Source: Kiritimatiellia bacterium
GTDB lineage: Bacteria > Verrucomicrobiota > Kiritimatiellia > RFP12 > UBA1067
Assembly (NCBI GenBank): GCA_017650345.1
Contig: JAGCFB010000070.1
Span: forward strand, 1-57,111
Length of the DNA: 57,111 bases
Direction: 5' to 3'
In this document: positions 19,601-52,656 of the stretch, piece after piece
How the letters are laid out: each line of letters begins with the position of its first letter
How positions within the stretch are numbered: position 1 is the stretch's first letter
Translations under genes and position numbers: made by a program
Notes under the pieces: generated by a model
Seen by the model: the letters and a program-made list of their open reading frames with translations, nothing else
Told to the model about the DNA's origin: nothing
The model's database searches: none

Positions 19601-22600
19601 CGGACGACGGCGTCACGCTCTGCTACCGCGGCGGCGGCCTCAACCCCTGCACGGCGGATACGGACTTCGACAACCTCCCCGACGCGTGGGAGATGTTCTA
19701 CGCCGGCATCGTTGTGGACGGTCCCGGCTACCAAAGCCAGTACGAGGCGTGCGACGGCGTCGGCCTCTCCAGCTACAGCCCGACGGGACCGTACGTCACC
19801 GGCGGCATGGACGCGACGGACTCGAACGACGCCTACACGACTTCGGAGGGCATCGATGATGTGACCGGAACCGTCCGCGACTACGACTGGGACGGCGACG
19901 GACTCGAGAACTACCAGGAGTACCTGATCCAGTCCGTCCGCTGCTGGCGCTACGACGACACGCTCACGCCTCTCATGGGCCGCGGCATCATCTGGGGCGA
20001 GGCCGGCGTCGAGGACACGCCGCCCAGGCTGTCCGAGCCCGTCGAGGGCGGAATGATCCCGATGAACATACTCAGCGGCGTCAACTTCTTCCAGACCGTG
20101 AAGACCTCCCCGCTCTGGGCCGCCTACTGCGAGGGCAACCCGGCGTTCGAGGACATGACGTCGTTCGACTACGTCAAGCTCGGCTACATGGCGCCGTGCT
20201 CGAAGCGCTGGGACATGATGCGCATGAAGGCTGCCTACGCCGACACCGACGAGCTCGTCGTCGAGATCGGCGAGGGCGAGGAAGGCGAGACCGTCATCGG
20301 CGAGGTCTATAACGCCTCCAGCTTCGGCGTCAAGGTCGCTCCCGGCATCTGCTGGATGCGCAAGCCGCACGCGCTCGTCGATGTGCTGACCGGAGCCGCC
20401 GGCTCGACCACGCTGAGGTGGAAGGAGGGCTTCAAGTACGTCTCCTGCGATCCGCGCAAGTGGGACACGGACGCCGACGGACTCGACGACTTCTGGGAGG
20501 TTTACCACGGCCTCAACCCGCTCTACGGTAAGATCGACGTCGTCGGCAATACGTTCAACGTCATCAGGGCGACGGACAACATCTGGACGCAGGCCGCCGG
20601 AGGATTCGCGCTCGATCCCGCGACCCAGCCGTGGACTATCGGACATCCCGACGCCGACCCCGACGGCGACGGACTCCGCAACCGCGACGAGGGCATCACG
20701 GGCAACCTGACCGATCCGACCACCTACCACACCGACCCGACTCCGCTGTGGATGACGGATTCCACGACGCCCGCCAGCTACACGGTGCAGTACTACCGCT
20801 CCGACGTGGATGGCGTTATCGGCATGTACGACGAGGCCAACGAGATCGAGGAGGTCACTTCGTTCAACAGGTACGGCTGGCAGTACACAATCGACGAGGT
20901 GGCCGGCAGCATGCCCGGAACGCGCAGCACCGCAGACTCGCAGGCCGACTCCGAGATTGCGCCACACGACTACATCTTCTCCTTCGAGAGGAACGAGGGC
21001 TACGACACCGACGGCGACTGGCGCGGCGACGGACACGAGGTCGCGCGCCTCGCGATGAGCACGAGCGATCCGCTCGACATGACCGATCCCGACCGCCGCG
21101 CGGCGCTCTACCTGCCCGGCCAGGACGCCTGCGCCTACTCGTTCAACGAGAGCAGGCAGTCCCTCGCCGCCTACGACACGTTCCGCCAGTTCACGGTCGA
21201 GTGCTGGGTAAAGCCCGAGGCGACCGGACGCGAGCAGACGATCCTCGAGCGCGGCTTCTCCTATCCGATGTCCAACCTCGCCAACAGCGAGACGGTCTGG
21301 CGCGTCAACTTCCGCCTGGCCCTGGACGCCTCCGGCCACGTGATCGGCATGTTCGACAACGACAACGCCGTTCCGAGCGGAACCGAGGGCAACGGATCCG
21401 TGTTCGTCGATGGCGGCGAGCTGGCCCTCAACGACTGGACGCACGTCGCGCTGACCTTCGACGGCAGCACGCTGTCCATCTACGTTGACGGACTCCGCCG
21501 CGACGTGGCGACTACGGCGCTCATCCCCGCGAACGGCGTCTATGTGTTCCTGCAGGAGCCGACGAAGGGCTTCTATCCGGCCTACCAGTACGCCAGCTAC
21601 GAGGGCGCGAACGTCGTCGGCGCGCACCGCACCGTCACCTCGTTCGCGTGGCACGGAGAGGACGCGACGTTCGAACAGTTCGACCAGTTCTTCAAGGGGT
21701 GGGTCGCGGAGGTCCGCTTCTGGGACGGCGCCCGCACCGCCGCCGAGATCAGGTCCGCCTACAGGAAGCGCATGAGCGAGGAGGACATCGAGGAGAACCG
21801 CCAGGAGGTCTATGCCGCCTGGAAGGAGGGCAAGACCCGCAACAACAACGACGGCAACGAGAACCTTCCGGCCATGCTGAAGGTCCTCTACAACTTCGCG
21901 CAGCTCCCGGCCGCCGCGAAGGCCAGCGACGTGTCGCAGCTTCCGAGCGGTTTCGAGAGCGTGATCGAGAACAGCGGACTTCCCGCCGAAGACACCGAGA
22001 TCGGCTGGTGGAAGGATTCGCCGCTGCGCTCGACGGTTTACACCGACGCGCACGTCGTGCCGCAGGCCAAGAACGTGTTCAACACGCTGCCGATCATGAG
22101 CGGCACCTTCATGGACTCCATGTACTGGTCGCAGCTCTTCGCCGGATACGTCTCGGCGTCGTCGAACGGCGTCAGCAACCACAACATCCCCGACGGCGGC
22201 TTCCCGTACGGCGACAGCTTCTACCTCAACGAGCTGGAGGTCGGCTACTGGAGGCTCCTGAGGAAGGGCTTCTACCTCTACGGCGTCGATCTCAGCGACG
22301 ATGAGGCGGAGGCCGAGCTCGAGTCCACCGACACATCCGTCGAATATCCGCACCGCAAGTACAGGTTCGACCTGATCAACCGCTTCTTGGGGATGGATTC
22401 GCTCGTACCGCTCGGCGGCGCGTACGCCAGGGTCGATAAGACGTACTGGGACGACATGGGTCCGTCCTCCGCCTGGACCGAGACGCGCGAGGACGCGGAC
22501 GGCGATGATCTCCCCGACTGGTGGGAGGCCGTGGCGGCCTCGAAGTACGGGGCGCCCGACGCGGAGACGCTGACGGCCAGGACGACCGTCAACTACAACG

Positions 22601-25600
22601 GCGTCGAGATGTTCGCGTACGAGGCCTACCTCCGCGACCTCGCGGCCGGCATGCAGCCCGGCGGCTCCGTCAACTCCGGATACGCGAGCACGGCGGACGC
22701 GGACGGCGACGGACTCGTCGACTGGTGGCAGGACATCTACGACGTCAAGGGCGGCGCCGCCGGAGACGACGATGCCGACGGCCTCGCCAACTTCGTCGAG
22801 TACGTCCTCACCGAGTACTTCAAGGTCGGAACGTTCAGCCCGATCAATCCGTTCAGCGTGAGCAAGTACGCCAGCGACTACTTCTACCGCGTCGGAGAGT
22901 CCTACGTCGGCGAGATCTTCACCGACTTCGACCGCACGAGCGACCAGTGGGAGGACAAGTACGACGGCGTGTCGCGCTACATCTACGACGCGAATGCGGA
23001 CGCCGACAACGACGGCTGGTCCAACCAGTCCGAGTTCCAGGCCGGAACCAACCCGACCAAGACCGGCTCGCTCTCGATCGACGAGGAGTGGATCAACGAG
23101 TATCCCGTGCCTGTCGTCGAGACGCACATCACCTACGAGGGAACGCAGTCCATCGCGGGCAAGCCGTTCGTCGTCCAGGCGTGGCATGACATGCCGCTCG
23201 GCGTGGCCGAGTCGGATCCGATCCCGGACGCCGTCTGGACCATCGGCGGCTCCTCCGACAGCACCAGCACCAGCACGAGCTCCAGCAGCTCCTCGAGCTC
23301 GGTCGATGAGGGCAACGGCTCCAAGTACGTCGGCATCAACCCCGGCAAGCAGATGCGCATCCATCTCTCGCCCGGCAGCGTCGTGGCCGGATCCGTCAAC
23401 GTCCAGGTCAAGGATCTCAACTGGGTCCTCTGGGACATGAACTCCGACATGACCTACGCGACCGATCCCGACGTCGCGATCTGGATTCCCGTCCTCACGG
23501 ACAGGCAGCGCATCGCCGAAACCGGAAAGGGCGACATCATCCGCAAGAACAACGAGCAGATCCTGGGCGAGATCGACTACGAGACCGGCGTCGCCACCAT
23601 CGACTTCTCGAAGCTCGACGGCTGGTACGGCATTGTCGGACAGCTGAGCTCGCAGGGCGTGACGCAGACCTCCGGCATGTATTCGATGTACCAGCTTGCC
23701 CAGAGCTACGTCAAGGTGACGTGGACGTCGATGCCCGTCGTGACCGGCGCCTCGGCCACCTACTACCTCGGCGAGCCCGACGCCCGCACGGCGGAGAACA
23801 ACTCCTTCGGACACCTCAAGGAGGGCTTGAACAAGTTCGTCGCGTTCTGCGACCTCGACGAGGACGGCAAGTACACGGCCGGCGAGCCCTACGGCGTCGC
23901 GCCCGACGTGAACGTCTCCTGGAGCAGCACGGCGTTCAGCATCGAGCTGACGGACACCACGCCCATCGTGACGCGCTTCGCCGTCGCGGCCGGCACGGCG
24001 AACGACCGCGAGGTCCTCTGGGGAACCGAGAACGGCGACGTCGCCAAGGAGATGATCACGGCTGGAGCCCTCTCCGGCGGACGCTACGAGCGTGTGAGGA
24101 TCGTCCGCACGTTCATCAACGGGCGTCCATGCGTCGAGCTCGGCGTCCAGGACCGCACGGTCCTCGACAAGGTGCTCGACCTCCAGAACGACGCGTACGT
24201 GACCGAGGCGGACTTCCTCGGCGACGGCAGCCTCGACCTCGATTGGGAGTACCTTGCCAGCGACATCAGGAACGGCAACATCAACGCGTCGAACCTCTCC
24301 ATCTCCAACGTGACGTACCGCGTCGTGCTCGGAAACGGAACGGTCGCGTTCGACGAGGAGAACAACCTCCTGTCGCTCGCGTTCAACAAGAGGTTCGACT
24401 CCAGGACCGTCTATCACAACGAGGCGACCCCGGTCCACCTCGGACCGTCCATCGTGACGACCCCGTCGCCCACGTTCGTCTGGACGATCCCGAACTCGCT
24501 CAACAGCTACACCGCGTTCGAGGTAGTCGTCCAGGACGAGTCCGGCAAGGAGATCTGGAGCTCCGGCCAGCGCCGCATGCCGGCCAGGATCCGCGACACC
24601 GACACCACCTGGCGCTACGAGTGGACCGCTCCGATCTTCGCGGACTCCTACCTGCCCGACGGCTCGAAGGTGTTCGAGAACAACAAGACGTACAAGTGGA
24701 ACGTCTCGGTGTTCAACTCGCTCTACAAGGACGACGACAACTTCGCGTCCGTCTCCACGCCGTTCCGCATGAACGTCGTCACCAACTCCGTTGACGCCGG
24801 CGTCATCAACGTCGCGGCCAGGTACTTCGGACAGTCCGCAGTGAAGAACAGCGGCAAGATCCGCGTCCAGGCGTTCAAGTCGCCCGACTTCAACGGCGTC
24901 CCCGTCGGCGAGGCCTGCGTCGCGAGCACGGCGGCCCTGGCGAACGGCGACAGCGAGCCTGTCGCGAACGCGAGGATCGTCGGGCTTCCGGCCGGCACCT
25001 ACTACGTGCGCGCCTTCATCGACACCCAGGCCGACGGCGAGTGCGCCGCATGGGAGTCGCAGGGCTTCGCGTGCGACCGCGACGTGCCGGGCGGCGTGAT
25101 CTACACGCCCGAGGCGGTCGTGATCGGACCCAAGTTCGGCGAGGGCGACCTCGTGAAGGTGTTCATCGAGGACGTCGATACGGACTGCGACAACCTGCCC
25201 GACGCGTGGGAATGGACGCAGAAGGGCAACCTCACGTCGCTGAGCGTCACGGCGCTCGACCAGACGCTGACGGGCTTCGTCGCGGTGAAGAAGTCGCTCA
25301 GCCAGACGTTCACCGGAACTGGCACGCTGACGTCCGGCCTCTCCGCGCGCCTCATGGGAGCGCTCGCGAGCCCGTACTCCGCGGCCATGGTCCTCGGCGT
25401 TGACGTCTCCGAGGCGGAGTCCGCCGACGATGCCGCGACCGCCATCGGCGCGGCCGTAGCCGAGGAGCTCGAGCCCAAGACCGTCCGCTTCACCTCCATC
25501 GCGCTCGACGTCGCCGGCAGGAAGGTGACGCTCGGAATCGAGACGGAGACGACGGACGTCGCAGACGCCGCGGTCGCCTCGCTCTACGAGTTCGACACGA

Positions 25601-25785
25601 CGGGCGCGCTCACGGTGACGATGCGCCTCTGGAGGAAGGAGACGCTCGACGGCGAGTGGTCCGAGATCGCAGCCGCCGCGCGCGACGTCACGATCGGCGC
25701 GGACGACGGCGACATCGAGCTTCCGCTCGGCGACGCCGACCTCGGCACGGGCGGATTCTTCAAGGTGACGCTCGAGAGGAAGTGA
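13609..25785 (+). CDS. Giant secreted protein (4,058 aa) with many thrombospondin type-3-like Ca-binding repeats and one LamG domain
   Basis: Signal peptide MMRKLAKSALVAIALGAATAASA. There are numerous DxDxDGxxDxxE motifs (DTDEDGLPDGYE, DFDGDGLTDAEE, DTDGDGCSDGYE, DWDGDGLENYQE, DPDGDGLRNRDE, DADGDGLVDWWQ). The LamG region lies at about 21100-21780 (FTVECWVKPEA...WTHVALTFDGSTLSIYVDG...WVAEVRFWDG). A Ser/Thr run lies at about 23250-23310. The C-terminus is ...GGFFKVTLERK. Confidence 0.85.
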   Translation: MMRKLAKSALVAIALGAATAASAGDIISIDALHGPVYAALNGGKSYPNPDNPLSIGETLSIRVRLINADRGESQDAHPWVLTGTSSMMPELGLSIGGVVRWAQLVSCEPAATTTKNSQHYFTDLIFQYTVRPGDLAQPVGLLNESLVEAEDGTSYAINMPSGLSLLGEDENLTEGYREVVWSYCSNGEVNDMKAYYPPKAGVDESGVPTSDKLLHGKSVYVKTIDFDSNYVDSGDETDPWIWRTIHKDSTKTTRWGNPSVVVDANADYSSTETGYATMYVWSENEMIIVPVGETQTREIDGVDRKVLPVKITTGDKSVPFTLRAVGAVGEGCWVFMSSAPQREYSATNGELKKNTVSRYVKVGEKLRPNISLTFGDNQWADAVASSDYSNPVEMYVTLSDVFESDVTVTVKPVLLDGDGNEIDVYAKHVIGTDATGDSGNGWLKSVTTLTFSGGVETEKSLFIFPLGATALSPRDKGGIEFRVESVTPAAASDYFVDRPVATLGVTAQKPEGTAAEDPYSFIANKARDVEIEVADGFRNIQHTADAADVAAAGDQLWKVVWNCNDDDDPDACTKYTWEGLVPQESVADPEKMVLALTGVKYPDVGEYESVVTVINPDGKQTQVAVSAEVSLPRTVVGTPDREDFTYTEGEKAQITVEITKKDNIDVYAYFDPINDDAKDGLSCANLAKVGNSGIEIPRGKTVAVTPMTVSVLDGTKTPSFRVVLSDKAVWEADAVDETSVREGYEFSKITLIVNNREPEGKSMEVGGGAVANGGVLGYSLPIDNRVTIKASVNDVKADLKLSSTVSDEAFKKWLEGGHDAEADVAAINEAGIFLTKFVFKNPAGRLLEADTIVVPGVNKSGVVSVQHEFNALGTNIVEVQMLDKDMFQALIDEGYTRSEIVDWVEEDGEGRWVVGIQDDQWGPKYVVGVPISDKPHVQIVPRNIYTSPNGQNGWNEDRAGADYGFNITLSDPAPRRLQVKVTLERTANTAVTDIKKLGSFSMKNTYGEVVLTEDNEDPDARCMYVTINASRDKPDTSMFLELCNIDGTQFSSYRLKAEVVTTTLTDDLIPLNEYFEPDYCTFSVFNLDPELTFVGANIGMQYSVRDGASTNVVSVSRNEDINIDWTVKDFVTFDQGDGSDLTVTWNSSEPGSRKVFTDQTEGTVTMSFSSSGDKRIICTVTDKDGGSNSYEWFFYVEASKRMYVYPLGPRRSSLTDALSRYATADGLGVGIVEGSGSIGGIENFRQGWDYPVNDSSAFAWARGLRAGESDQSLRAGRARTWWVGQDGSGVNSADQAYVNPDETFDSFFYAAFSQMPDESGRFETALLKFEPHMAQDSRSDELADATIALPKAEKDAVAYDDRHVEMIFSKEWRELDNCGDINQDGVPDFIIKNYGLGVYDKASVSLADDLLSAAGYNDDEDYLPQNASSGITIVPNTQDKWQDNGGAFNAKLEVRGWGEGLNRGYLDAQGNPPAPDYTTNEKRAWLLWRGLATKDELAAKSADAVDALFNDNIADATDDLALANRTNGAEGWSPERPTDPTVADTDEDGLPDGYEYWFWYGARVGYDKDGTWQGPMTGRFLNLDDLEEPTIIQSDAICEAFDPLAVNNYTTARDFDGDGLTDAEELAIGTNPVDCDTDGDGCSDGYEVMWGMNPIDAADGTGNPSNPDGDCMAYTPASSSRIVTFEMEGPVPGTSFNYMYLVSYIDDDTQTFEGSLLRTSANEIDVADVTRTFRGEQIPVSLGNFTVKSYKNALNFTVSETGLALYHDQVYKVFGFDPRTAWTGGCIHGNIPRWCHSCHPKDDKRQGSLNVDTGKVINTRGLTQLDEYLWGKYHGIVRLATDKTVLDILRNSCTNPNATFDKTYGDWSANVADTQHGADTDGDACPDGWTMYVGGDPITPQPGATHFGALNNDGDLLQNSGEFAGLDSSEKYSACESLAKGKPEQWLNKFWPTDPSDEDTDADGLSDSAESGVWDDAYPDTSSDTTPWSFSFCYTTATDDGVTLCYRGGGLNPCTADTDFDNLPDAWEMFYAGIVVDGPGYQSQYEACDGVGLSSYSPTGPYVTGGMDATDSNDAYTTSEGIDDVTGTVRDYDWDGDGLENYQEYLIQSVRCWRYDDTLTPLMGRGIIWGEAGVEDTPPRLSEPVEGGMIPMNILSGVNFFQTVKTSPLWAAYCEGNPAFEDMTSFDYVKLGYMAPCSKRWDMMRMKAAYADTDELVVEIGEGEEGETVIGEVYNASSFGVKVAPGICWMRKPHALVDVLTGAAGSTTLRWKEGFKYVSCDPRKWDTDADGLDDFWEVYHGLNPLYGKIDVVGNTFNVIRATDNIWTQAAGGFALDPATQPWTIGHPDADPDGDGLRNRDEGITGNLTDPTTYHTDPTPLWMTDSTTPASYTVQYYRSDVDGVIGMYDEANEIEEVTSFNRYGWQYTIDEVAGSMPGTRSTADSQADSEIAPHDYIFSFERNEGYDTDGDWRGDGHEVARLAMSTSDPLDMTDPDRRAALYLPGQDACAYSFNESRQSLAAYDTFRQFTVECWVKPEATGREQTILERGFSYPMSNLANSETVWRVNFRLALDASGHVIGMFDNDNAVPSGTEGNGSVFVDGGELALNDWTHVALTFDGSTLSIYVDGLRRDVATTALIPANGVYVFLQEPTKGFYPAYQYASYEGANVVGAHRTVTSFAWHGEDATFEQFDQFFKGWVAEVRFWDGARTAAEIRSAYRKRMSEEDIEENRQEVYAAWKEGKTRNNNDGNENLPAMLKVLYNFAQLPAAAKASDVSQLPSGFESVIENSGLPAEDTEIGWWKDSPLRSTVYTDAHVVPQAKNVFNTLPIMSGTFMDSMYWSQLFAGYVSASSNGVSNHNIPDGGFPYGDSFYLNELEVGYWRLLRKGFYLYGVDLSDDEAEAELESTDTSVEYPHRKYRFDLINRFLGMDSLVPLGGAYARVDKTYWDDMGPSSAWTETREDADGDDLPDWWEAVAASKYGAPDAETLTARTTVNYNGVEMFAYEAYLRDLAAGMQPGGSVNSGYASTADADGDGLVDWWQDIYDVKGGAAGDDDADGLANFVEYVLTEYFKVGTFSPINPFSVSKYASDYFYRVGESYVGEIFTDFDRTSDQWEDKYDGVSRYIYDANADADNDGWSNQSEFQAGTNPTKTGSLSIDEEWINEYPVPVVETHITYEGTQSIAGKPFVVQAWHDMPLGVAESDPIPDAVWTIGGSSDSTSTSTSSSSSSSSVDEGNGSKYVGINPGKQMRIHLSPGSVVAGSVNVQVKDLNWVLWDMNSDMTYATDPDVAIWIPVLTDRQRIAETGKGDIIRKNNEQILGEIDYETGVATIDFSKLDGWYGIVGQLSSQGVTQTSGMYSMYQLAQSYVKVTWTSMPVVTGASATYYLGEPDARTAENNSFGHLKEGLNKFVAFCDLDEDGKYTAGEPYGVAPDVNVSWSSTAFSIELTDTTPIVTRFAVAAGTANDREVLWGTENGDVAKEMITAGALSGGRYERVRIVRTFINGRPCVELGVQDRTVLDKVLDLQNDAYVTEADFLGDGSLDLDWEYLASDIRNGNINASNLSISNVTYRVVLGNGTVAFDEENNLLSLAFNKRFDSRTVYHNEATPVHLGPSIVTTPSPTFVWTIPNSLNSYTAFEVVVQDESGKEIWSSGQRRMPARIRDTDTTWRYEWTAPIFADSYLPDGSKVFENNKTYKWNVSVFNSLYKDDDNFASVSTPFRMNVVTNSVDAGVINVAARYFGQSAVKNSGKIRVQAFKSPDFNGVPVGEACVASTAALANGDSEPVANARIVGLPAGTYYVRAFIDTQADGECAAWESQGFACDRDVPGGVIYTPEAVVIGPKFGEGDLVKVFIEDVDTDCDNLPDAWEWTQKGNLTSLSVTALDQTLTGFVAVKKSLSQTFTGTGTLTSGLSARLMGALASPYSAAMVLGVDVSEAESADDAATAIGAAVAEELEPKTVRFTSIALDVAGRKVTLGIETETTDVADAAVASLYEFDTTGALTVTMRLWRKETLDGEWSEIAAAARDVTIGADDGDIELPLGDADLGTGGFFKVTLERK

Positions 25786-25793
25786 GCCGCAGT

Positions 25794-25825
25794 GCGGGGC
25801 CTCGCGCGAGGGCGCGGGGTCCCGC
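25794..25825 (+). terminator. GC-rich imperfect hairpin after the giant gene (possible operon terminator, no U-tract)
   Basis: GCGGGGCCTCGCGC-gag-GGCGCGGGGTCCCGC pairs at 12 of 14 arm positions. It starts 9 nt after the stop codon. No T-run follows. Confidence 0.3.
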
Positions 25826-25864
25826 CGGCATCCCAACAGGACGTTTAAACAAACAGGAGTCAAA

Positions 25865-26995
25865 ATGAAAAAGGCAGTACGCAAGGTTCTGGTCATCAAT
25901 TCCGGTTCGAGCTCGCTCAAGTACCAGCTCTTCGACATGAAGAGCGGAGAGCGTCTCGCAAAGGGGCTCGTCGAGCGCATCGGGTGCGGCGGACCCAAGG
26001 ACCACACCGAGGCCCTCAAGCAGGTCGTCGCCGACCTCGGCGCGCCGAAGGACATCGACGCTATCGGACACCGCGTCCTCCACGGCGCGGAGGTCTTCAA
26101 GGATTCGGTGAAGGTTGACAAGGCGGTCCTCGCAAAGCTCGACAAGCTGGTCAAGTTCGGTCCGCTCCACATGCCGGCGAACATCGGCGGCATCCGCGCG
26201 TGCGAGAAGATCTTCAAGGGCGTCCCGAACGTCGCGGTCTTCGACACGGCCTTCCACCAGACGATGCCCGACTGCGCGGCGATGTACGCCATCGATCCGA
26301 AGTACTACAAGAAGATGGGCATCCGCAAGTACGGCTTCCACGGAACCTCCCACAAGTTCATCACGGAGGAGGCCGCGAAGCTTCTCAAGAAGCCGGTCGG
26401 CAAGGTGAACCTGGTCACGTGCCACATGGGCAACGGCTCCTCGCTCGCCGCCGTCAAGAACGGCGAGTGCGTCGATACGACGATGGGCCTCACGCCGCTC
26501 GCCGGACTCGTCATGGGCACTCGCTGCGGCGACATCGACGCGGCGGCCGTGCTGGCGATCATGGAGGCGGAGAAGAAGACGCCCGCCGAGATGGACACGC
26601 TGCTCAACAAGAAGTCCGGACTCCTCGCCCTCACGGGCTCCAGCGACTGCCGCGACATCTGCACGAAGGCGGAGCAGGGCGACAAGGCCGCCGAGCTCGC
26701 GCTCGAGATGCTCGCGTACAGGACGGCGCTCTACATCGGCGCGTACAACACGGTCGTCGGCGGCGCGGACGCGATCATCATGACCGGCGGCATCGGCGAG
26801 AACTCGACCGAGGTCCGCGAGAGGATCATAAACCGCCTCGGCGCGCTCGGCATCAAGCTCGACAAGAAGGCGAACAAGGTCCGCGGCAAGGTCGCCGTCC
26901 TGTCCGCCAAGGGATCCAAGATCCCCGTCATCGCGCTTCCGACGAACGAGGAGCTCGCCATCGCGCGCGACACGGTTAAAGTATTGGAGAAATAG
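25865..26995 (+). CDS. ackA: Acetate kinase
   Basis: N-terminal KVLVINSGSSSLKYQLFDM, HRVLHGAE, GFHGTSH and the C-terminal IALPTNEELAIARDT are classic AckA motifs. AGGAG lies at 25855-25859, 6 nt before the ATG. Confidence 0.93.
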   Translation: MKKAVRKVLVINSGSSSLKYQLFDMKSGERLAKGLVERIGCGGPKDHTEALKQVVADLGAPKDIDAIGHRVLHGAEVFKDSVKVDKAVLAKLDKLVKFGPLHMPANIGGIRACEKIFKGVPNVAVFDTAFHQTMPDCAAMYAIDPKYYKKMGIRKYGFHGTSHKFITEEAAKLLKKPVGKVNLVTCHMGNGSSLAAVKNGECVDTTMGLTPLAGLVMGTRCGDIDAAAVLAIMEAEKKTPAEMDTLLNKKSGLLALTGSSDCRDICTKAEQGDKAAELALEMLAYRTALYIGAYNTVVGGADAIIMTGGIGENSTEVRERIINRLGALGIKLDKKANKVRGKVAVLSAKGSKIPVIALPTNEELAIARDTVKVLEK

Positions 26996-27005: not shown

Positions 27006-27058
27006 GGCGCGAGACGCGAGACGCGAGACGCGACATCCCGTCTCTCGTCTGGCGTCTC
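27006..27058 (+). repeat. GCGAGAC-repeat palindromic element in the ackA-pta spacer
   Basis: GCGAGAC is repeated three times in tandem, followed by the imperfect complement CGTCTCTCGTCTGGCGTCTC, giving a hairpin of roughly 20 bp. Its reverse complement matches 45127-45183 inside uvrA (49/53 aligned positions plus one 4-nt indel by my hand alignment). Confidence 0.85.
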
Positions 27059-27081
27059 CCGTCCAAAGGAGAATCAAGATC

Positions 27082-28119
27082 ATGACAGCAATTGAATCTA
27101 TCATAGCGAAGGCTTCGGCCCTCAACGGCACGGTCGTCCTTCCCGAGGGAATGGACGCGCGCGTCATCACTGCGGCGTGCGCATGCGTCGATCGCAAGAT
27201 CTGCACGCCGGTCGTGCTCGGAACGCCCGAGGAGATCGCCATCGCCGAGGCTTCGGCCGGCCTTAGCCTCGCGGCTCGCGGTATCAAGACCATCGACTAC
27301 ACGCAGGGCGACGCGGAGCTCGAGGCGGCGTACCTCGAGGCGTGGAACGCGAAGGAGTCGAGGAAGCCGACCGAGAAGCAGAAGATCATCGACCTTGCGG
27401 CGGCGGAGAAGACGCTCCGCACGAAGAGGATCTACTTCGGCGGAATGATGGTCAAGCTCGGCAGGGTCAACGGACTCGTCGCGGGCTCCATCGCATCGAC
27501 GGGCGACATGCTCCGCGCGGCGTTCCACACGCTCGGCACGCAGAAGGGCGTGAAGACGGCGAGCTCGTGCTTCATCATGGACCTCAAGACCCCGACTCCG
27601 TCCGGCGACTCGGTCCTCGCCTTCGGCGACTGCGCCGTCATCCCCAACCCGACGGCCGAGCAGCTCGTCGATATCGGACTCGCCACCGCGCAGACGTACC
27701 GCGACCTCACCGGCAACGAGCCGCGCGTCGCGTACCTCAGCTTCTCCACCAAGGGGTCCGCCGCTGGCGACCTCGTCGAGAAGGTCCAGAAGGCCGTCGA
27801 GCTCGCGAAGCCGCGCTTCGCCGAGGCGGGAATCAAGATGGACGGCGAGCTCCAGTTCGACGCGGCCATCGCGCCGTCCGTCGGACAGCTCAAGAACCCG
27901 AACGGCGAGATCCAGGGCAACGCGAACGTCTTCATCTTCCCGGACCTCCAGGCGGGCAACATCGGCTACAAGATCGCGCAGCGAATCGGCGGCGCGACGG
28001 CGATCGGCCCGAACCTCCAGGGTCTCGCCAAGGCGATGAACGACCTTTCGCGCGGATGCTCCGCCGAGGACATCGTCGGAACGATCTGCGTGACGCTTCT
28101 TCAGAGCCAGACCAAGTGA
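27082..28119 (+). CDS. pta: Phosphate acetyltransferase (short PTA_PTB type)
   Basis: The 345-aa product contains GMDARVITAA...TPVVLG, GLVAGSIASTGDMLRAA, VFIFPDLQAGNIGYKIAQR and NDLSRGCS. It lies directly after ackA. AAGGAG lies at about 27066-27071. Confidence 0.88.
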   Translation: MTAIESIIAKASALNGTVVLPEGMDARVITAACACVDRKICTPVVLGTPEEIAIAEASAGLSLAARGIKTIDYTQGDAELEAAYLEAWNAKESRKPTEKQKIIDLAAAEKTLRTKRIYFGGMMVKLGRVNGLVAGSIASTGDMLRAAFHTLGTQKGVKTASSCFIMDLKTPTPSGDSVLAFGDCAVIPNPTAEQLVDIGLATAQTYRDLTGNEPRVAYLSFSTKGSAAGDLVEKVQKAVELAKPRFAEAGIKMDGELQFDAAIAPSVGQLKNPNGEIQGNANVFIFPDLQAGNIGYKIAQRIGGATAIGPNLQGLAKAMNDLSRGCSAEDIVGTICVTLLQSQTK

Positions 28120-29129: not shown

Positions 29130-29137
29130 AAATAGTG

Positions 29138-29143
29138 TATAAT
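29138..29143 (+). promoter_or_regulatory. -10 element TATAAT upstream of the secretin cluster
   Basis: An AT-rich island (29125-29175) follows kpsF. TATAAT lies at 29138-29143 and the purine-rich AAAGGGGAAAG precedes ATG 29176. Confidence 0.45.
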
Positions 29144-29175
29144 ATACCGTTGTAAAAAAGAAAGGGGAAAGCAGA

Positions 29176-29907
29176 ATGAAGAAGATGATTGCTCTGGCGC
29201 TTGCCGCATGCGCGGCCGCGCAGGTTGTGGCCGCCGTCCCGGCGAGGGGCGGGAAGCGCGCCGCCGCGAACGCCGCGCCCGCCGCCGCCGCCAAGGAGGC
29301 CGAGGACGAGCGCCTTTCCATCGAACAGTTTCCCACCATCGGGCGTCAGGCGACGCTCGCCGCGCCGAACGTGCCCGGCACGTCCAACATCCGCGGCAAG
29401 TGCGCCACGAACCAGCGCCGCTGGATAGTGCTCGAGGCGAAGTACCAGACGATGGCGAAGTGGCACGACCGCCTCACCTTCACGTGGCACGTCCTTCTCG
29501 ACTCCAAGACGGCGACGGAGAACAAGAACAACAAGGACGGGCTTCCCCCGTACTCGTACTTCACGACGAGCACGACGTACGCGAACATCCCGCGCGGACG
29601 CCACGCCGCGTCCGTCTGCCTCCATCCCTCCTACTACGAACGCTTCGGCGAGCCGGCCGCGGTCGGCCTCGTCATCACCAACGACAAGGGCGAGGTGCTC
29701 GCGGGCGACTGCGAGAGCCAGGTCAAGGGGATCGAATCGCATCCGAAGTCCGTCGAAGAGGCGTTCTGGAACAAGTCGGACATCATGGAGGCCAAGGTCG
29801 GCAACACGGACGATCCGATGATCGAGCGCCGCGAGGGGCTTCTCGACCGCTCCAAGACGATCTGGGCCCTCGTGAACCCGGACGATTACGAGCTCGTCGC
29901 TCAGTGA
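29176..29907 (+). CDS. Secreted protein of unknown function, first gene of the secretin cluster (positional equivalent of Amuc_1102)
   Basis: Signal peptide MKKMIALALAACAAAQVVAA. No family is recognised by eye. It is followed after a 10-nt gap by the PilM-like gene. Confidence 0.6.
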   Translation: MKKMIALALAACAAAQVVAAVPARGGKRAAANAAPAAAAKEAEDERLSIEQFPTIGRQATLAAPNVPGTSNIRGKCATNQRRWIVLEAKYQTMAKWHDRLTFTWHVLLDSKTATENKNNKDGLPPYSYFTTSTTYANIPRGRHAASVCLHPSYYERFGEPAAVGLVITNDKGEVLAGDCESQVKGIESHPKSVEEAFWNKSDIMEAKVGNTDDPMIERREGLLDRSKTIWALVNPDDYELVAQ

Positions 29908-29917
29908 GGCTGAAAAG

Positions 29918-31534
29918 ATGTCCAAGAAATTCCTGACGCTAGACATAGGCGCGTCGTCTATCACCCTCGCGGAGTACGAGGCGAGCGGCGCGCAGCTCAC
30001 GCTCCTCAACTACGGAACGGCCGCGCTCGCGGCGCCGATCGACTCTGGCGACGCGGACACGATCCTCTCGCCTGCGATCCTCGAGATCGTGCGCGAGAAG
30101 GGTATCAAGCCCGGCAAGGTCGCGGTCTCGCTCTCGGGGCAGATGGTGTTCCCGCGCTTCGCGGCGATCCCGTTCGTCGGCTCCGACGAGCAGAAGTTCG
30201 ACCAGATGGTCCGCTACGAGATCGAGCAGAACATCCCGTTCCCGATCGACGAGATGGTGTGCGACCGCCAGATCCTCGGCGAGACCGAGAACGGCGACAA
30301 GGCCGTCCTCATTGTCGCGGCGAAGGTTGACCAGGTCGAGGCGATAACGAACGCGCTTGTTGCGACGGGCTTCAGTCCGGAGATCGTGGACGTCGCGTCC
30401 CTCTCCGTGATGAACGCGATCCGCGCCGCGGCGCCGGACGACGGCTCGTGCGTCGTCGCGCTCGACATCGGCGCGAAGACGACGTCGCTCGTCATCTCCG
30501 AGGGCGAGAAGCTCTACAACCGCTCCATCCCGGTGGCGGGCAACACGATCACGAAGGAGATCGCGCAGGCGCTCGGCTGCACGCTGGAGGAGGCGGACCG
30601 CATCAAGCGCGAGGAGGCGTACGTCTCCCTGGGCGGCGTCACCGAGGACGAGGACCCGATGCGCGACAAGGTCGCTAAGGTCTGCCGCGCCGTCATGACG
30701 AGGCTCCACGCCGAGCTTTCCCGCTCCATCAACTTCTACCGCAGCCAGCAGGGCGGCGGCACGCCGGTCAAGCTCTACCTCACCGGCGGCACGGCCCTCC
30801 TGCCGCACATCGGCACGTTCTTCGGCGACTCGCTCCAGATCGACGTCGAGCTCTTCAATCCGTTCGAGACGATCGCCGTCGCGCCGTCCATCGACGCCTC
30901 CGCGCTCGAGACGGGCGCCGCGCTCCTCGCGCCGACGGCCGGCCTCGCGCTGCACTGCGCAGGCGCCGCGCGCTACGGCATCAACCTGCTTCCGCAGTCC
31001 ATCCTCGACGCCCGCGCCGAGGTCAAGCGCATCCCGTTCGTCGCCGCAGCGGGCGTCATGTTCGTCGCGGCGGCGGTGTGCGCGCTGCTCGCCGTCGGAC
31101 ACGGCAAGGACGTCGTTGAGAGCAGGCTCGATGCGGCCGAGGCGAAGGCGCGCGAGTTGCAGGACTGGAAGTCGCGCGTTGACAAGGCGCAGAAGTCCGC
31201 CAAGGAAGCCGAGGCCGACGCCGAGGCGCTGCGCGCGCTAGTCATGAAGCGCGCGGCGGCGGGCTTCCGCCTCAACGCGGTCAGGATGGCCATAGGCGAG
31301 GATCTCTGGATCGAGCGCTGGCAGGGCGACAGCGTCACCTTCCGCGGATGGAAGGACCGCGTCGCAGCGTTCGCCGAGCGCGCCGGCAAGGGCCAGACGG
31401 CCCCCGAGATCGTGGTTTCGCGCCTGAAGTCGAATCCGGCGGTGGACCCCGATTCCGTCAAGGTCGTTGACATGACCGCATTCGGCAAGGACGGATGCCT
31501 CGAACAATTCACAGTGGAGCTGAAGTTCAAATGA
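29918..31534 (+). CDS. pilM: PilM-PilN fusion protein (actin-like ATPase fold + PilN-type TM/coiled-coil tail)
   Basis: LTLDIGASSITLAEY and VALDIGAKTTSLVI are actin-fold phosphate motifs as in PilM/FtsA. GINLLPQS is followed by the TM helix IPFVAAAGVMFVAAAVCALLAV and a coiled coil, which is the canonical PilN N-terminus. The stop overlaps the next start (ATGA at 31531-31534). Confidence 0.75.
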   Translation: MSKKFLTLDIGASSITLAEYEASGAQLTLLNYGTAALAAPIDSGDADTILSPAILEIVREKGIKPGKVAVSLSGQMVFPRFAAIPFVGSDEQKFDQMVRYEIEQNIPFPIDEMVCDRQILGETENGDKAVLIVAAKVDQVEAITNALVATGFSPEIVDVASLSVMNAIRAAAPDDGSCVVALDIGAKTTSLVISEGEKLYNRSIPVAGNTITKEIAQALGCTLEEADRIKREEAYVSLGGVTEDEDPMRDKVAKVCRAVMTRLHAELSRSINFYRSQQGGGTPVKLYLTGGTALLPHIGTFFGDSLQIDVELFNPFETIAVAPSIDASALETGAALLAPTAGLALHCAGAARYGINLLPQSILDARAEVKRIPFVAAAGVMFVAAAVCALLAVGHGKDVVESRLDAAEAKARELQDWKSRVDKAQKSAKEAEADAEALRALVMKRAAAGFRLNAVRMAIGEDLWIERWQGDSVTFRGWKDRVAAFAERAGKGQTAPEIVVSRLKSNPAVDPDSVKVVDMTAFGKDGCLEQFTVELKFK

Positions 31535-32574
31535 ACAAGAACCAGATTACAATGGCGGCAATCGGAGGCGTCGCGCTCGTAGCGGCGCTGGCCGTGGGCT
31601 ACCTCGCGTTCAGCGCCAGCGGCGAGAGCGGCGAGAAGTTCGACGAGCTCGAGGGCAAGCGCGCCGAGATATCCAACCTGAAGGGGGCCGCCGTCGCGCC
31701 GTGCGCGGAGTCCGTCAAGAAGATCGACGAGAACAAGGCGGTCCTGGCGTCCTGGCGCGAGCAGGCGTTCGCGCTTGCGGCGAAGGGCGACGCGGCGCCT
31801 GCGGGCGAGACTTCACCGGCTGCGTTCAAGCAGCGCATGGTCGAGGACGCGCGCGAGCTTTCGAGGCTGCCTGGCGGCGTTGACGGCGCGATCGTCAAGC
31901 CCGGCTTCGGCTTCGGGTTTCCCAGCTTCATCAACGAGGGCGCGATGCCCAAGGCCGAGGAGCTCGCGACGCTCGACCGCCAGTGGTCCGAGACGTGCCT
32001 CCTCGTGAAGACGCTCGCCGGGTGCGGAGTGTCCGAGCTCGTCTCCATCGAGCCGGCGCAGGCGAAGCAGGAGGAGGCCGCGCCGAAGGAGAAGCGCGGC
32101 GGACGCGGACGCAAGGCGCCGGAGAAGCCGAAGGAGATCGCGTCCGCCCAGTCGTACTCCATCAAGATGAACGCGAGGCCCGCGGCCTTCGTCAAGGTCA
32201 TGAACGCCATCGCAGAGGGCGACCGCTTCATATGCATCGACAACTTCTCCTTCACGCGCGAGGACGCGCTCGGACGCATCCTCGGCGAGGGCAAGGGCAA
32301 GGCCGGCGCCGAGGAGGCGGCCGCCCCGAAGGAGTCGCGCCGCGGCAGGGGCCGCCGCGGGGCGCAGCAGGCGGACGAGCAGTCCGAGGAGAAGGCGGAG
32401 GTCGCCATGAAGGGGCTCGTCACCGACCCCTCGACCGCCACACTCGCCATCACGCTTGACGTTACGACATTCGACTTCGGCAGCAGGCCCGTCGCGGCGG
32501 CCGAATCCGCGGAAGGCGAAAAGCCGGAGGCGGCAGCGCAGGCCGCGGGGACAGACGACGATGAGGAGGACTAG
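31531..32574 (+). CDS. PilO-like membrane protein, probable homologue of Akkermansia Amuc_1100
   Basis: N-terminal TM helix MAAIGGVALVAALAVGYLAF, then a coiled coil. The blocks SPAAFKQRMVEDARELS, LVKTLAGCGVSELVSIEP, YSIKMNARPAAFVKVMNAIAEGDRFICIDNFSF and LAITLDVTTFDF line up with the Amuc_1100 sequence as I recall it (TPTAFQNELKTFRDSL, LVNKLAECGLSKFIKV, LEIAFQGDRESVLKAMNAITGMQDYLFTVNSI, VFVQVSLNLVHFN). The track start at 31495 is rejected in favour of the ATGA-coupled ATG at 31531. Confidence 0.6.
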   Translation: MNKNQITMAAIGGVALVAALAVGYLAFSASGESGEKFDELEGKRAEISNLKGAAVAPCAESVKKIDENKAVLASWREQAFALAAKGDAAPAGETSPAAFKQRMVEDARELSRLPGGVDGAIVKPGFGFGFPSFINEGAMPKAEELATLDRQWSETCLLVKTLAGCGVSELVSIEPAQAKQEEAAPKEKRGGRGRKAPEKPKEIASAQSYSIKMNARPAAFVKVMNAIAEGDRFICIDNFSFTREDALGRILGEGKGKAGAEEAAAPKESRRGRGRRGAQQADEQSEEKAEVAMKGLVTDPSTATLAITLDVTTFDFGSRPVAAAESAEGEKPEAAAQAAGTDDDEED

Positions 32575-32577
32575 GCA

Positions 32578-33693
32578 ATGATCGGCAAGGAAAGCAAGGG
32601 CTTCTTCGCGGCGCACTGGGACTGGCTTATCGCCGGCCTCGGCGCCCTCGCGCTCGCGGGAGGGGCCGTGTGGATGGTGGTCGAGTCCGGCGCGGACCCC
32701 GACGAGGCGGCGCGCGACGAGGCGGCGTCTCTCGGCTCGTCCGGCGGAAGCGGGGCGAAGAAGATCGACGACGTCGAGATCCTCCCCTACGCGGCGGCCC
32801 TCAAGCTGCTCGAAAGCCCGACCAAGGTCGTGGAGCCAGCCGAGAAGCAGGGGAGCTTCCTCGCGTCCGCGAGGCGCGTGTTCTGCGAGCAGGGCGACGC
32901 GTCGGCGGAGAAGCCGGCGTGCGGACAGCCGATCCCGTTCGGACTCAAGACCTGCCCGCTCTGCGGCGCGAAGCAGCCCGAGGAGGCCAAGGTCTCGCTC
33001 GACTCCGACGGCGACGGCATCCCGGACGAGGTCGAGGTCGCTCTCGGAATGAACCCGAACGACCCGACGGACATCGACGGCGACCTCGACGGCGACGGCT
33101 TCACGAACGCCGAGGAGTTCGCCGCGAAGACGGATCCCAAGGATCCCGCCTCGCATCCCGACTACCTCGATTCGCTCCGCGTCGATCCGAACCTCAAGGC
33201 CGAGCGCCTCGCGTTCTACTTCGAGGCCGTCATGCAGACGCCGGGCGGCGCGAAGTTCTCCTTCAGGGATCCGAAGGCGCGCAACGACAACGGAGGCGTC
33301 GGCAGGACCTACCGCGTGCTCGCCGGCGAGGAGATCGGAACGTCCGGTTTCGTCGTGAAGAGCTACGAGCAGAAGTCCCAGCGCGAGTCGATCAAGGGCA
33401 CCAGCGTCAAGCGCGAGCGCGACACCTCGACCGTGGAGCTCGAGCGCAAGTCCGACGGCAAGCGCGTGACGCTCACGATAGGCGAAAAGCGCTTTGCGGA
33501 CGTGGACATACAGGTCCGGCTCGTCTATGAGCGCGGGGCCGGCAAGGAGTTCACGGTCGTCAAGGGCGACACGATCGAACTCAACGGCGAGAGCTATCTC
33601 GTCAAGTCGATAGCGCGCGACGGAAAGAGCGTGAAGGTCACGTTCGAGAATGCCAAGACGGGAACAAAAACCGTCGAAGCACTTGAACAGTGA
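32578..33693 (+). CDS. Membrane-anchored protein with a Cys4 zinc-ribbon-like motif and TSP3-like Ca-binding repeats (positional equivalent of PilP/Amuc_1099)
   Basis: TM helix WDWLIAGLGALALAGGAVWMVV. Cys pattern CEQGDASAEKPAC...CPLC. Ca-binding repeats DSDGDGIPDEVE and DIDGDLDGDGFTNAEE. The C-terminal domain is beta-rich. Confidence 0.6.
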   Translation: MIGKESKGFFAAHWDWLIAGLGALALAGGAVWMVVESGADPDEAARDEAASLGSSGGSGAKKIDDVEILPYAAALKLLESPTKVVEPAEKQGSFLASARRVFCEQGDASAEKPACGQPIPFGLKTCPLCGAKQPEEAKVSLDSDGDGIPDEVEVALGMNPNDPTDIDGDLDGDGFTNAEEFAAKTDPKDPASHPDYLDSLRVDPNLKAERLAFYFEAVMQTPGGAKFSFRDPKARNDNGGVGRTYRVLAGEEIGTSGFVVKSYEQKSQRESIKGTSVKRERDTSTVELERKSDGKRVTLTIGEKRFADVDIQVRLVYERGAGKEFTVVKGDTIELNGESYLVKSIARDGKSVKVTFENAKTGTKTVEALEQ

Positions 33694-33705
33694 AGAGAAA
33701 TTAGA

Positions 33706-33711
33706 TATAAT
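33706..33711 (+). promoter_or_regulatory. Internal promoter for the secretin gene (TTGAAC-17 nt-TATAAT)
   Basis: TTGAAC lies at 33683-33688, followed by a 17-nt spacer and TATAAT at 33706-33711. AAGGAG lies at 33729-33734 and the ATG at 33745. Confidence 0.55.
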
Positions 33712-33744
33712 TATTTTCAGTAAATCCTAAGGAGCAGCGTTCCA

Positions 33745-36700: not shown

Positions 36701-37053
36701 CGACGAAGTCCAACGAGACGATGACGTACTACGACGCCCCGATGGAGCAGCCGTTCTTCCACGTCCGCCAGATCCAGTCCAACCTCTCGCTCGCGCCCGG
36801 TGCGACGATCGTGATGGGCGGACTCATCACCGAGGCCCGCAAGGCCATGGACGACAAGATTCCGTTCCTCGGCGACCTGCCGTTCATCGGAAGGCTCTTC
36901 CGCAGCCACTCCGAGCAGACGAAGAAGCGCAACCTGCTCATCTTCCTCACCGCCCGTCTCGTCACGATCAGCGGCAAGGAGGTCGTGGTTGACTCCACGG
37001 GCGAGCTGAAGGCCGAGAATCCGGTCATACCTTCGCCGTCCGTCGGCGATTGA
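33745..37053 (+). CDS. Outer-membrane secretin (type II/III secretion system / PilQ family) with a long acidic N-terminal repeat region
   Basis: Signal peptide MMNFRKLVAASAAMALVAVGHNVIA. The C-terminal secretin signature reads ...VVMGGLITEARKAMDDKIPFLGDLPFIGRLFRSHSEQTKKRNLLIFLTARLV. An E/P/A-rich region lies at about 33886-34215. Confidence 0.85.
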   Translation: MMNFRKLVAASAAMALVAVGHNVIAQDDLDDLLAALESDSSGGASAEAATPAEPAETPEVAARDEEPAPAAEAEEPAAAEADEPEPSEEPADEPEEEPAAEEPAAEAEEEPAAEEPADEPEEPAPAEEGPAVAAVPAAPAAAEAEPEAGSEAEEPAVEVAAELSGDDAELLANVAAAQRLGRQAYDLQAKREIQIARSCMRSEEYLEAAKHYRLAQKYLNDSPATATLRRECGQGIAEGLYRAALQEDGIGRRDRAIKLMKKAMEFRHPKARRQLEQWKDGVDPSSLQADVSEVRGRISEPEYAAKRAEILKHLRRSRQLLGTKELDAALDECEIVLVLDPTNQEAIRLRGKIERKMYTIGEQEREAAREGMIADVNRAWRPAYAVNARDSVKKTGGTVKTETADDTERTQEQNVIARMKAMKLPQVTFKPPATISDAVDFFQTASIDYDDPRLPREERGFGFIIRNNDNAPVPMSAASSEVEEGFGVGGDEDMPMPTGPGVFTTMLSLPNPTFYEALTEVCSQVGYKFKVKGRNIYIMPKNMTAEEMTTRSYPVLSTFMERMNTASAELKEANPGSGFGGGGRRNDDNTGEGNEEEDLKDYFRMMGLEFPTGSRIMYLPSLGKLRVRNTYENLAEFEKALVELNADPRLIEIEARFVEVCQEDLNSLGFEWILNSDYTLNLPKHLARALNVKNGAWGKSDSTVTYTDGTSYSTVGGGISTAGGTTVKNTASEMTSSSSRTFYANSNGASWIKDKGSQVNSHRNAGINGFGGDSEYGTGQRYLSTLSNHISGESKSTNDQFMRVNAFLGGADLSMILHMLSQRSDTDLLSAPKVLTKTGQPATMKVVTEFIYPESYNVQLQSSSSSSSSYGGSQSAILAVVEPESFKMREVGVILETTPTLTDDGNIIDIVIDARVVDEPTWKNYGMKIPFTGNSSSLQNFQGIGDILGGLSDVLATIGTGLTDAVKQTFAESTVNAATSALDSLTTKSNETMTYYDAPMEQPFFHVRQIQSNLSLAPGATIVMGGLITEARKAMDDKIPFLGDLPFIGRLFRSHSEQTKKRNLLIFLTARLVTISGKEVVVDSTGELKAENPVIPSPSVGD
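33886..34215 (+). repeat. Degenerate tandem repeats encoding an acidic (E-E-P-A)n low-complexity region of the secretin
   Basis: Recurrent GAGCCAGCCGACGAGCCGGAGGAGGAGCC units (for example near 34008 and 34087) encode EEPADEPEEEPAAEEPAAEAEEEPAAEEPADEPEEP. Confidence 0.7.
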
Positions 37054-43304: not shown

Positions 43305-46174
<2,870 letters not shown>

Positions 46175-46194: not shown

Positions 46195-46205
46195 TGTTGA
46201 CCTTG

Positions 46206-47828: not shown

Positions 47829-47836
47829 TCTAGTCA

Positions 47837-52631: not shown

Positions 52632-52635
52632 CGCG

Positions 52636-52647: not shown

Positions 52648-52656
52648 GGTTGGAGG

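Follow-up and report, generated by a model that had tools for sequence, protein, structure and literature searches.

REPs lie downstream of open reading frames, form dimers and also occur inside genes, many of them repair genes (Di Nocera et al. 2013, PMC3733652). Opitutus terrae, a verrucomicrobium, has REPs in both of its uvrA genes, and Thioalkalivibrio has them in uvrA (PMC3733652). GTAG-tagged REPs and REPINs go together with RAYT (PMC3733652; Bertels and Rainey 2011, PMC3116915), and the CGTC-tagged REP superfamily has no known transposase; its members have an unpaired 5′ CGTC, an 8-9-bp stem that starts with A-T pairs, a 4-5-nt loop and a CCA tail (PMC3733652). Rickettsia palindromic elements (RPE) sit within protein genes, in frame (Ogata et al. 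2000, as reported in PMC3733652), and two short types, RPE-4 and RPE-6, correspond to REPs with a CGTC tag (PMC3733652). Among long simple-sequence repeats, heptamers are the most abundant class in most of the bacterial genomes surveyed (PMC4679880, PMC4692102). Genome-specific dispersed heptamers, whose means of spread is left unexplained, have been described in Xanthomonas (unit GGGAATC), Nostoc and Beggiatoaceae (unit TAACTGA) (PMC4692102, PMC4679880).

Here we describe a palindromic element with heptamer arms in a 57,111-nt stretch of DNA from a Kiritimatiellia bacterium (contig JAGCFB010000070.1; the window). The window has 66% G+C and carries nearly all genes on the plus strand, and AckA and UvrA proteins identical to those encoded in it are annotated in NCBI from a Kiritimatiellae MAG.

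A heptamer palindrome between ackA and pta

The element lies in the 86-nt spacer between the genes for acetate kinase (ackA, 25865-26995, plus strand) and phosphate acetyltransferase (pta, 27082-28119, plus strand). Both identities, proposed in a sequence-only reading of the window, are supported by Pfam (PF00871, E 2e-134, and PF01515, E 5e-98), and the identical AckA protein bears this name in the Kiritimatiellae MAG. The first copy (copy 1) occupies 58 nt (27006-27063, plus strand) and begins 10 nt past the ackA stop codon (TAG, 26993-26995). It consists of a left arm (27006-27030, GGCG C GAGACGC G AGACG C GAGACG), a loop (27031-27038, CGACATCC) and a right arm (27039-27063, CGTCTC T CGTCT G GCGTCTC C CGTC). 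A pattern search and a tandem-repeat finder both recovered three perfect GCGAGAC units (27009-27029), and TRF reported 3.7, 4.0 and 4.0 copies of period 7 across the loci of copy 1 and of the second copy, which is described below. Both loci thus contain at least three tandem 7-nt units, and the unit is shared between them, as in dispersed heptanucleotide repeats.

As RNA, copy 1 folds at -39.3 kcal/mol (z -3.94), and 0 of 200 shuffled sequences were as stable; as DNA, the two strands give z values of -3.3 and -4.3. The stem comprises 22 pairs in four helices with a single mismatch each 6-7 nt. Copy 1 is, as REPs are, an imperfect palindrome that folds as a single-stranded hairpin. The original description of three GCGAGAC heptamers followed by their imperfect complement, together forming a hairpin of about 20 bp, agrees well with the three perfect units and the 22-bp hairpin found here. 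Since copy 1 is identical, with three units, in five other independent assemblies of the same species, it is real and no assembly artefact, and the observation itself is confirmed.

No unpaired GTAG (or GTGG) tetranucleotide is found at the element ends, which are paired GC clamps (GGCGC-GAGAC and GTCTC-CCGTCC). An unpaired 5′ CGTC tag is absent as well; CGTC occurs within the paired arms only, the base of the stem is GC-rich and the loop measures 8-12 nt. One end of each copy has a CCA-like tail. The hexamer AAAGGA stands on both sides of copy 1, which may be due to chance; no such repeat flanks copy 2. When searched against Rfam at the gathering score, the window yields one tRNA alone and nothing at the element, and a permissive threshold adds only spurious microRNA-precursor matches with E above 1. 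A literature search for the exact sequence GAGACGCGAGAC gave no match.

A terminator scan called no terminator-like site at 27006-27070. The stem is followed by CAAAGGAGAAT, which contains no T-run, and copy 1 does not belong to the T-run type of intrinsic terminator. The ribosome-binding site of pta (AAAGGAG, 27065-27071, plus strand) starts two bases past the hairpin, position 27064 being an unpaired C, and the ATG start codon follows at 27082. A promoter scan called no promoter-like site in the ackA-pta spacer.

Several other features of the window deserve mention. TATAAT -10 boxes, most of them preceded by TG, stand in other spacers that apparently start transcription units (4540-4560, 29137-29150, 33704-33715, 46187-46197 and 47824-47832). 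One of them lies ahead of tRNA-Leu(TAA) (46206-46294), and the promoter scan likewise picked out the box at 29138-29143, marking no TG ahead of it. A run of 12 C (CGCGCCCCCCCCCCCCGG) in a 25-nt spacer (52632-52656) precedes a large ORF that begins at 52657, and this homopolymer could slip. A giant ORF of 4058 aa (13609-25785) has a Laminin_G_3 match and weak matches to bacterial TSP3 repeats in precomputed gene calls of same-species contigs; the 4369-aa ORF antisense to it (13183-26292, minus strand) is, by GC3, a stop-free shadow typical of high-GC coding DNA. Finally, a cluster at 29176-37053 resembles the pilus-like locus Amuc_1098-1102 of Akkermansia, with an Amuc_1102-like protein, PilM, a member of the Amuc_1100 family, a TSP3-repeat protein and a secretin.

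A second, inverted copy within uvrA

The sequence-only reading had placed an inverted second copy in uvrA at 45127-45183. This copy (copy 2) is indeed present, its extent being corrected to 45122-45183 (minus strand). It resides inside uvrA (43301-46174, plus strand) between the conserved UvrA motifs LTGRK and FLTISGC, in the fifth of the hot spots of length variation described below (aa 605-632), and is translated in frame as part of a hypervariable linker. Copy 2 lies wholly in a conserved ORF, keeps the reading frame and is free of stop codons, and the same site lacks the element in the sister species.

An alignment of the two copies revealed 52 identical bases in 58 aligned positions and a 4-nt loop indel; the strong likeness noted before thus holds, the earlier figure having been about 92% (49/53). 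The inverted orientation is unambiguous, with an alignment score of 41 vs 22 for the direct one. Copy 1 matches its own reverse complement at 47/58 positions and is therefore closer to copy 2, from which it follows that the copies share derived asymmetric features. These comprise the loop, a variant CAGAC unit in one arm and the homogenisation of the other arm to (GCGAGAC)n. The mismatch positions are shared as well. Four of the six substitutions are accounted for by two dinucleotide swaps (GC to AT and CC to AT) at the free NN positions of the heptamer, so that, judging from the alignment, the difference looks like an exchange of unit types rather than point mutation. The excess of hairpin stability is gone in copy 2 (z -0.1 to -1.0 as RNA, about 0 as DNA), as would be expected if the element has decayed or if strong hairpins are selected against within coding sequence.

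In a GC-rich window, the likeness of the copies might be a mere chance similarity of low-complexity sequence, and two tandem GCGAGAC units with up to two mismatches indeed occur at only about twice the shuffled frequency (11 observed vs 5.3 expected). However, every match with 0 or 1 mismatch falls in the two elements, and a profile built from the two copies scores E values of 1e-19 and 3e-16 at the copies and 1.5 at the next match in the 57 kb. As the loop and the mismatch positions are also common to both copies, we reject this explanation, to which we assign next to no probability, in line with the earlier judgement that chance GC low-complexity sequence was unlikely.

Empty and occupied sites in relatives

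The closest relative (the sister species) shares 97% identity in AckA and 84% nucleotide identity over 21 kb. Its ackA-pta spacer measures 29 nt (GGTGCCAGGTTCAGTAAGGAGAATTGAAA), lacks a hairpin and keeps the ribosome-binding motif AAGGAGAAT. The spacer difference of about 60 nt is the sole sizeable non-coding indel in the 21-kb alignment. Because the spacer of the nearest relative is empty, copy 1 is dispensable, not essential. The 38 kb available from the sister species contain no heptamer arrays at all.

More distant sequences show other occupants. The ackA-pta spacer holds a GAGAC-type palindrome in L138 (AckA 91%), a GGGAC/GAGAC-like variant in L137 (AckA 94%), a different heptamer hairpin in L131 (AckA 95%), where a (GTTGAAA)n hairpin occupies the next spacer, and tandem CTAGAAA-type units without a hairpin in L132 (AckA 92%). 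The UvrA linker that holds copy 2 contains a GAGAC-type palindrome in L136 (UvrA 79%). When the L138 and L136 elements are compared with the window copies, 46-48 of 56-59 aligned bases are identical. The window copies (52/58) are therefore closer to each other than to these elements at orthologous sites, which argues for recent copying within the source genome. We considered and dropped the view that the elements of L138 and L136 are inverted with respect to those of the window, as both orientations score alike (46/56 vs 48/58); orientation cannot be called across species because these palindromes match their own reverse complements at about 81% identity.

Two histories would fit this distribution, namely the loss of an old element in the sister lineage and the repeated colonisation of the same site. 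Under either history, the ackA-pta spacer and the UvrA linker are permissive sites with fast turnover.

A second repeat family, with CTAGAA(N) units that are tandem and not palindromic, was encountered in L138 (5282-5399), L132 (11129-11231) and L133 (14850-14903), and recurs in different operon spacers of different Kiritimatiellae species. Furthermore, 3.4 units of GAGGGAA in L131 (13164-13187) stand just ahead of the point at which an SIS-CBS gene is split into two ORFs (12384-13223 and 13220-13381). One uninterrupted ORF represents this gene in the window and in other relatives, and the split is probably due to a heptamer-induced frameshift or an assembly error.

As to its effect on the host operon, copy 1 would fold in the ackA-pta transcript into a very stable stem-loop two bases 5′ of the pta ribosome-binding site. 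The likeliest consequence, as for classical REPs, would be a barrier to 3′-5′ exonucleases and/or a partial block of read-through, either of which could shift the ackA:pta ratio. We infer such a regulatory effect, which would be incidental and not required.

A dedicated regulatory RNA of ackA-pta, i.e. an attenuator, processing site or mRNA stabiliser kept by selection, would explain why so stable a stem-loop stands exactly between two co-transcribed genes and so near to the ribosome-binding site, and why the same spacer harbours some structured or repeated sequence in several relatives. Yet this is very unlikely, given that the spacer of the closest relative is empty, that the occupants in L131 and L132 are unrelated and the latter forms no hairpin, that the sequence of the element is also found within the coding region of an unrelated gene, and that Rfam offers no match. 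The RNA folding energies of the two strands showed no consistent bias in 67 element rows and lend no support to selection at the RNA level. With the T-run missing, the sister spacer empty, the asymmetry of the copies shared and family members present in relatives, the proposal of a repeated-element family rather than a local terminator is sustained as far as terminators of the T-run type are concerned.

A wider family of GAGAC palindromes

Scanning one genome per species for GAGACGCGAG-N5-35-GTCTCNCGTCT gave at least 117 loci. Since the unit was fixed in the query, GAGAC is not thereby shown to be special, and relatives carry other units. In many of the matches listed, the 7-nt period continues far beyond the bases that the query required. 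According to their MAG labels, the matches listed come from Kiritimatiellae, Lentisphaerae, Verrucomicrobia, Planctomycetota, Chloroflexia, Gemmatimonadaceae, Acidobacteriota, Bacteroidota, Gammaproteobacteria and Acidimicrobiia.

From the matches listed we compiled 41 GAGAC/GTCTC clusters, which represent the window and 39 loci taken as Kiritimatiellae or related PVC MAGs, some of them titled only 'uncultured bacterium'. Among the matches listed, the Kiritimatiellae/PVC clusters commonly end in GGGCRT-GAGAC...GTCTC-RCGCCC, often followed by A, and many of the elements are nested composites of about 110 nt. REPs are typically located 3′ of ORFs, in spacers of unidirectional or convergent genes, and the same holds here: copy 1 starts 10 nt past the ackA stop codon, and 51% of the elements of PVC relatives among the matches listed start within 50 nt past the stop of a long ORF, vs 9% for random positions. 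In several PVC elements among the matches listed, the TGA stop codon itself comes from the element.

We also scanned JGI metagenomes for the exact core GCGAGACGCGASATCC...CGTCTC and obtained five matches. Their flanks lack heptamer periodicity, and we rejected them as family copies, considering them chance matches. In L041 (6160-7600), a composite GAGAC palindrome is present in each of about five tandem units of 260-300 nt, which alternate with 36-nt sub-repeats whose minus strand would encode Cys-rich 12-residue repeats.

UvrA hot spots filled by translated repeats

The site of copy 2 was examined in 120 UvrA homologues of 67-90% identity (mostly about 80%), which range from 927 to 1055 aa in length. 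All length variation resides in five hot spots (window aa ~140-144, 211-213, 240-249, 444-457 and 605-632), the flanks of which are conserved. In a comparison of the sister and window proteins, homology stops exactly after LTGRK and resumes at FL(T/S)ISGC, and the 27-aa linker of the window is replaced by an unrelated linker of 25 aa. The sister linker is apparently hairpin-capable, too, as the surrounding 120 nt have a raw folding energy of -53.6 kcal/mol; no further copy of this hairpin was found in the 38 kb of the sister species. Three members of the UvrA cluster possess window-type linkers of equal length with one residue different.

In 25 of the 120 UvrA homologues we found stretches of at least 9 aa that agree with a translated pure heptamer DNA repeat, for which a chance match is negligible. 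Each of the 62 positions of such stretches falls inside a hot spot (62/62), and the same analysis gave none in 120 AckA and none in 120 Y1-like proteins. Single UvrA proteins carry one repeat peptide at several hot spots, at up to four sites in P0003 (PPNPNTQTP). L133 has the heptamer CACGARC in hot spots 1 and 5 of UvrA and, inverted, in one intergenic spacer. Its hot spot 5 is composed of a 4-unit arm, a loop and a 24-unit arm, all in frame.

The Y1 gene and the question of RAYT mobilisation

A fusion gene of a Y1-HUH and a DprA-like domain (579-2060, plus strand) is the candidate mobilising enzyme of the window, and no link between it and the element was found. The sequence-only reading had called it Y1/RAYT-like. 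Its Y1 nature is substantiated by the HUH (MPDHIHIIL) and Tyr (FRYVRDNPRR) motifs, and its likeness to RAYT only in part, as the match to NCBIfam REP_Tyr_transpos (E 7e-9, 35.7 bits) stays below the curated cut-off of 80; Pfam Y1_Tnp gives E 0.064. In an AlphaFold model of a 401-aa homologue (pLDDT 80.8), the predicted N-domain superposes on IS200/IS605 transposases and on the RAYT 4er8 (rmsd 2.7 Å, 140 columns), and the predicted C-domain matches DprA and the defence protein ShosA in the PDB. The homologues listed are 51-83% identical across Kiritimatiellae, and most of the contigs that carry them are very short. In L134 (10001-11206) and L135 (10001-11212) the gene forms part of a type I R-M operon; it stands between hsdM and hsdS, and the stop and start codons of adjacent genes overlap. 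A CRISPR array adjoins it in the window. The Y1-DprA protein is a possible defence accessory.

The CRISPR array end (1-333), inside which the contig begins, shows five full repeats with a 61-nt period and the core CTTTCCCCACGCGAGTGGGGATGTTCC, and a degenerate sixth at 306-328. Within the Y1-DprA gene, a 124-nt direct repeat (1177-1300 and 1873-1996, 98% identical) provides, at the C-terminus, a second copy of the variable peptide that links the domains (PAPVVAVGDEVALTRNQQNNSGGFAGGGSVASAAA); this duplication is also seen in assembly P0249 and is absent from the homologues of about 400 aa. Another heptamer array, 4.6 units of GAGTTGA, lies inside the hsdS specificity gene of the type I R-M system of L134 (11783-11814), where slippage could alter or switch specificity.

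If the element were a REP or REPIN mobilised by this enzyme, the protein encoded at 579-2060 would bind the single-stranded hairpin, cut it and paste it elsewhere. In favour of such a route are the HUH and Tyr motifs together with the sub-threshold RAYT match, the predicted superposition of the N-domain on 4er8 and on IS200/IS605 transposases, and the composite, REPIN-like doublets in many relatives. The degree of conservation in Kiritimatiellae would also be compatible with a domesticated, vertically inherited gene like those of RAYTs. However, no palindrome flanks the gene on either side in the window, L134 or L135, and its placement between hsdM and hsdS as well as the DprA/ShosA-like domain point to a defence role. 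A single-query tblastn search with the Y1 protein found no homologue in ~930 kb around 78 GAGAC-palindrome detections among the matches listed, some of which overlap or are near-duplicates; such a search could miss distant Y1 genes. In addition, the element has no unpaired GTAG tag, and the copies are oppositely oriented in host genes of the same strand, which is a misfit with strand-specific insertion into single-stranded DNA. Mobilisation by this gene is thus unlikely, and the claim that the Y1/RAYT class mobilises the element is not borne out by its unflanked, defence-like setting, its distance from the palindromes and the missing tag.

Origin and spread of the element

Considering the shared asymmetry of the copies and the conserved architecture in relatives, we think on balance that the element belongs to a REP-like selfish family of small non-coding palindromic repeats in Kiritimatiellae, with arms of heptamer microsatellites. 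The arms would be short GAGAC-NN heptamer arrays closed by a GC clamp, with a consensus of about TGGACGnGAGACGnCAGACGnGAGACG - loop - complement - GCGCCCA. Such elements would persist where they do little harm, i.e. right past stop codons in short co-directional spacers or, in frame, in flexible protein linkers. The window copies would be recent products of copying within the source genome, with one as the origin of the other or a third copy as the origin of both. This copying, to which the shared derived asymmetry attests, would have proceeded by transposition or gene conversion. Slippage of heptamers and exchange of whole units would then remodel the arms, as the differences in unit type and the very unequal arms in relatives suggest. 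It is important to note that the 57-kb window contains only two copies, that no transposase is linked to the element, and that the two copies reveal neither defined termini nor a convincing target-site duplication.

The presence of different heptamers at one spacer in close relatives could instead mean that the palindromes are generated in place. In that case the element would not be mobile: heptamer microsatellites would expand by polymerase slippage and become palindromes through strand switching, and the likeness of the window copies would be due to gene conversion or sequence bias. A number of observations are in keeping with this. In most of the bacterial genomes surveyed, heptamers are commoner than any other long simple-sequence repeat, with slippage as the proposed cause; arms can be very unequal, as with 4 vs 24 units in uvrA of L133; the ackA-pta spacers of L131, L132 and L137 hold unrelated heptamers; the window copies differ by swaps of whole unit types; and the 38 kb of the sister species are without any heptamer array. 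On the other hand, the loop, the variant CAGAC unit and the mismatch positions are common to both copies, unit order and GC-clamp ends are conserved across species, and the CACGARC unit of L133 recurs at three separate sites within 13 kb. That identical 58-nt structures arose independently is very unlikely, and gene conversion needs a pre-existing homologous target. Generation in place therefore seems rather unlikely, and we prefer a dispersing, REP-like selfish family.

A more far-reaching interpretation, which we consider improbable, is that heptamer-periodic palindromes constitute, in about ten phyla, a class of their own that has gone unrecognised, made up of small DNA that is mobile or expands by itself. 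They would be copied by machinery other than classical RAYT, possibly the Y1-HUH + DprA-like enzyme or a replication/repair route. The five UvrA linkers would then serve as slippage-prone off/on switches of nucleotide-excision repair, in which only multiples of three units keep the frame, and thus form a mutator contingency locus. Should unit number in uvrA slip within populations, this would open a new route to reversible mutator states; the five assemblies of copy 1 and the three window-type UvrA linkers described above show no change in length.

Comparison with known systems

Kiritimatiellae of gut and rumen, which are poorly studied and lack genetic tools, carry palindromic repeat families with fast turnover. 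In these families, REP-like hairpins and heptamer microsatellites, which are usually treated apart, are combined. The elements remodel operon spacers and add peptide segments at five recurrent sites of UvrA, by which the earlier unexplained preference of REPs for repair genes (PMC3733652) is extended to a whole clade with many independent examples. From a practical perspective, the hairpins break assemblies and mislead predictions of terminators and small RNAs, and they could be used as strain markers.

With REP, BIME and REPIN sequences the element has in common that it is a short, dispersed, imperfect palindrome, dispensable, and situated past stop codons between co-directional genes. Further similarities to REPs are the dimer and composite forms of relatives, the copies within genes including uvrA of a PVC bacterium, and the CCA-like 3′ tail on many copies. 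In contrast to REPs, the element has no unpaired GTAG or CGTC tag, a stem of about 22 pairs vs 5-13, arms made of 7-nt units with one mismatch per unit, a loop of 8-12 nt and no flanking RAYT gene that we could find. It measures 58 nt vs 20-40 nt for a classical REP, and the copies known here are two in 57 kb vs tens to thousands per genome.

The RPEs are resembled by copy 2, which is translated in frame in a protein that is conserved and presumably functional, lengthens a permissive linker by about 20 residues, and belongs to a family that can hit several sites of one protein. There is, however, no sequence relationship, and the host of the element is a free-living gut anaerobe, unlike the obligate intracellular host of RPEs. 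RPE-1, the first-described RPEs, are about 100-150 bp long and not heptamer-periodic.

Dispersed heptanucleotide repeats, which in cyanobacteria are known as STRR, share with the element the 7-nt unit, the recurrence at many intergenic sites of one genome, the rapid turnover between close relatives and occasional inverted pairs. They are mainly direct tandem arrays, often 5′ of start codons, whereas the arrays of the element are inverted pairs that form one long hairpin with conserved GC-clamp ends, mostly just past stop codons.

Like MITEs (Correia/NEMIS, Nezha), which can be co-transcribed and fold as RNA, the element is small, non-coding and dispersed and shows terminal inverted symmetry. 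Unlike in MITEs, the whole element is a hairpin, with no core between inverted repeats, and neither a parent insertion sequence nor a convincing target-site duplication was found. The resemblance to intrinsic terminators is confined to a GC-rich stem-loop past a stop codon; the element differs from them in that a T-run is missing, the ribosome-binding site of the next gene follows at once, and its sequence is also present in a coding region. Taken together, the elements are a new family and a structural variant of the broadly known REP-like elements, in which a REP-like palindrome is joined with heptamer-array arms.
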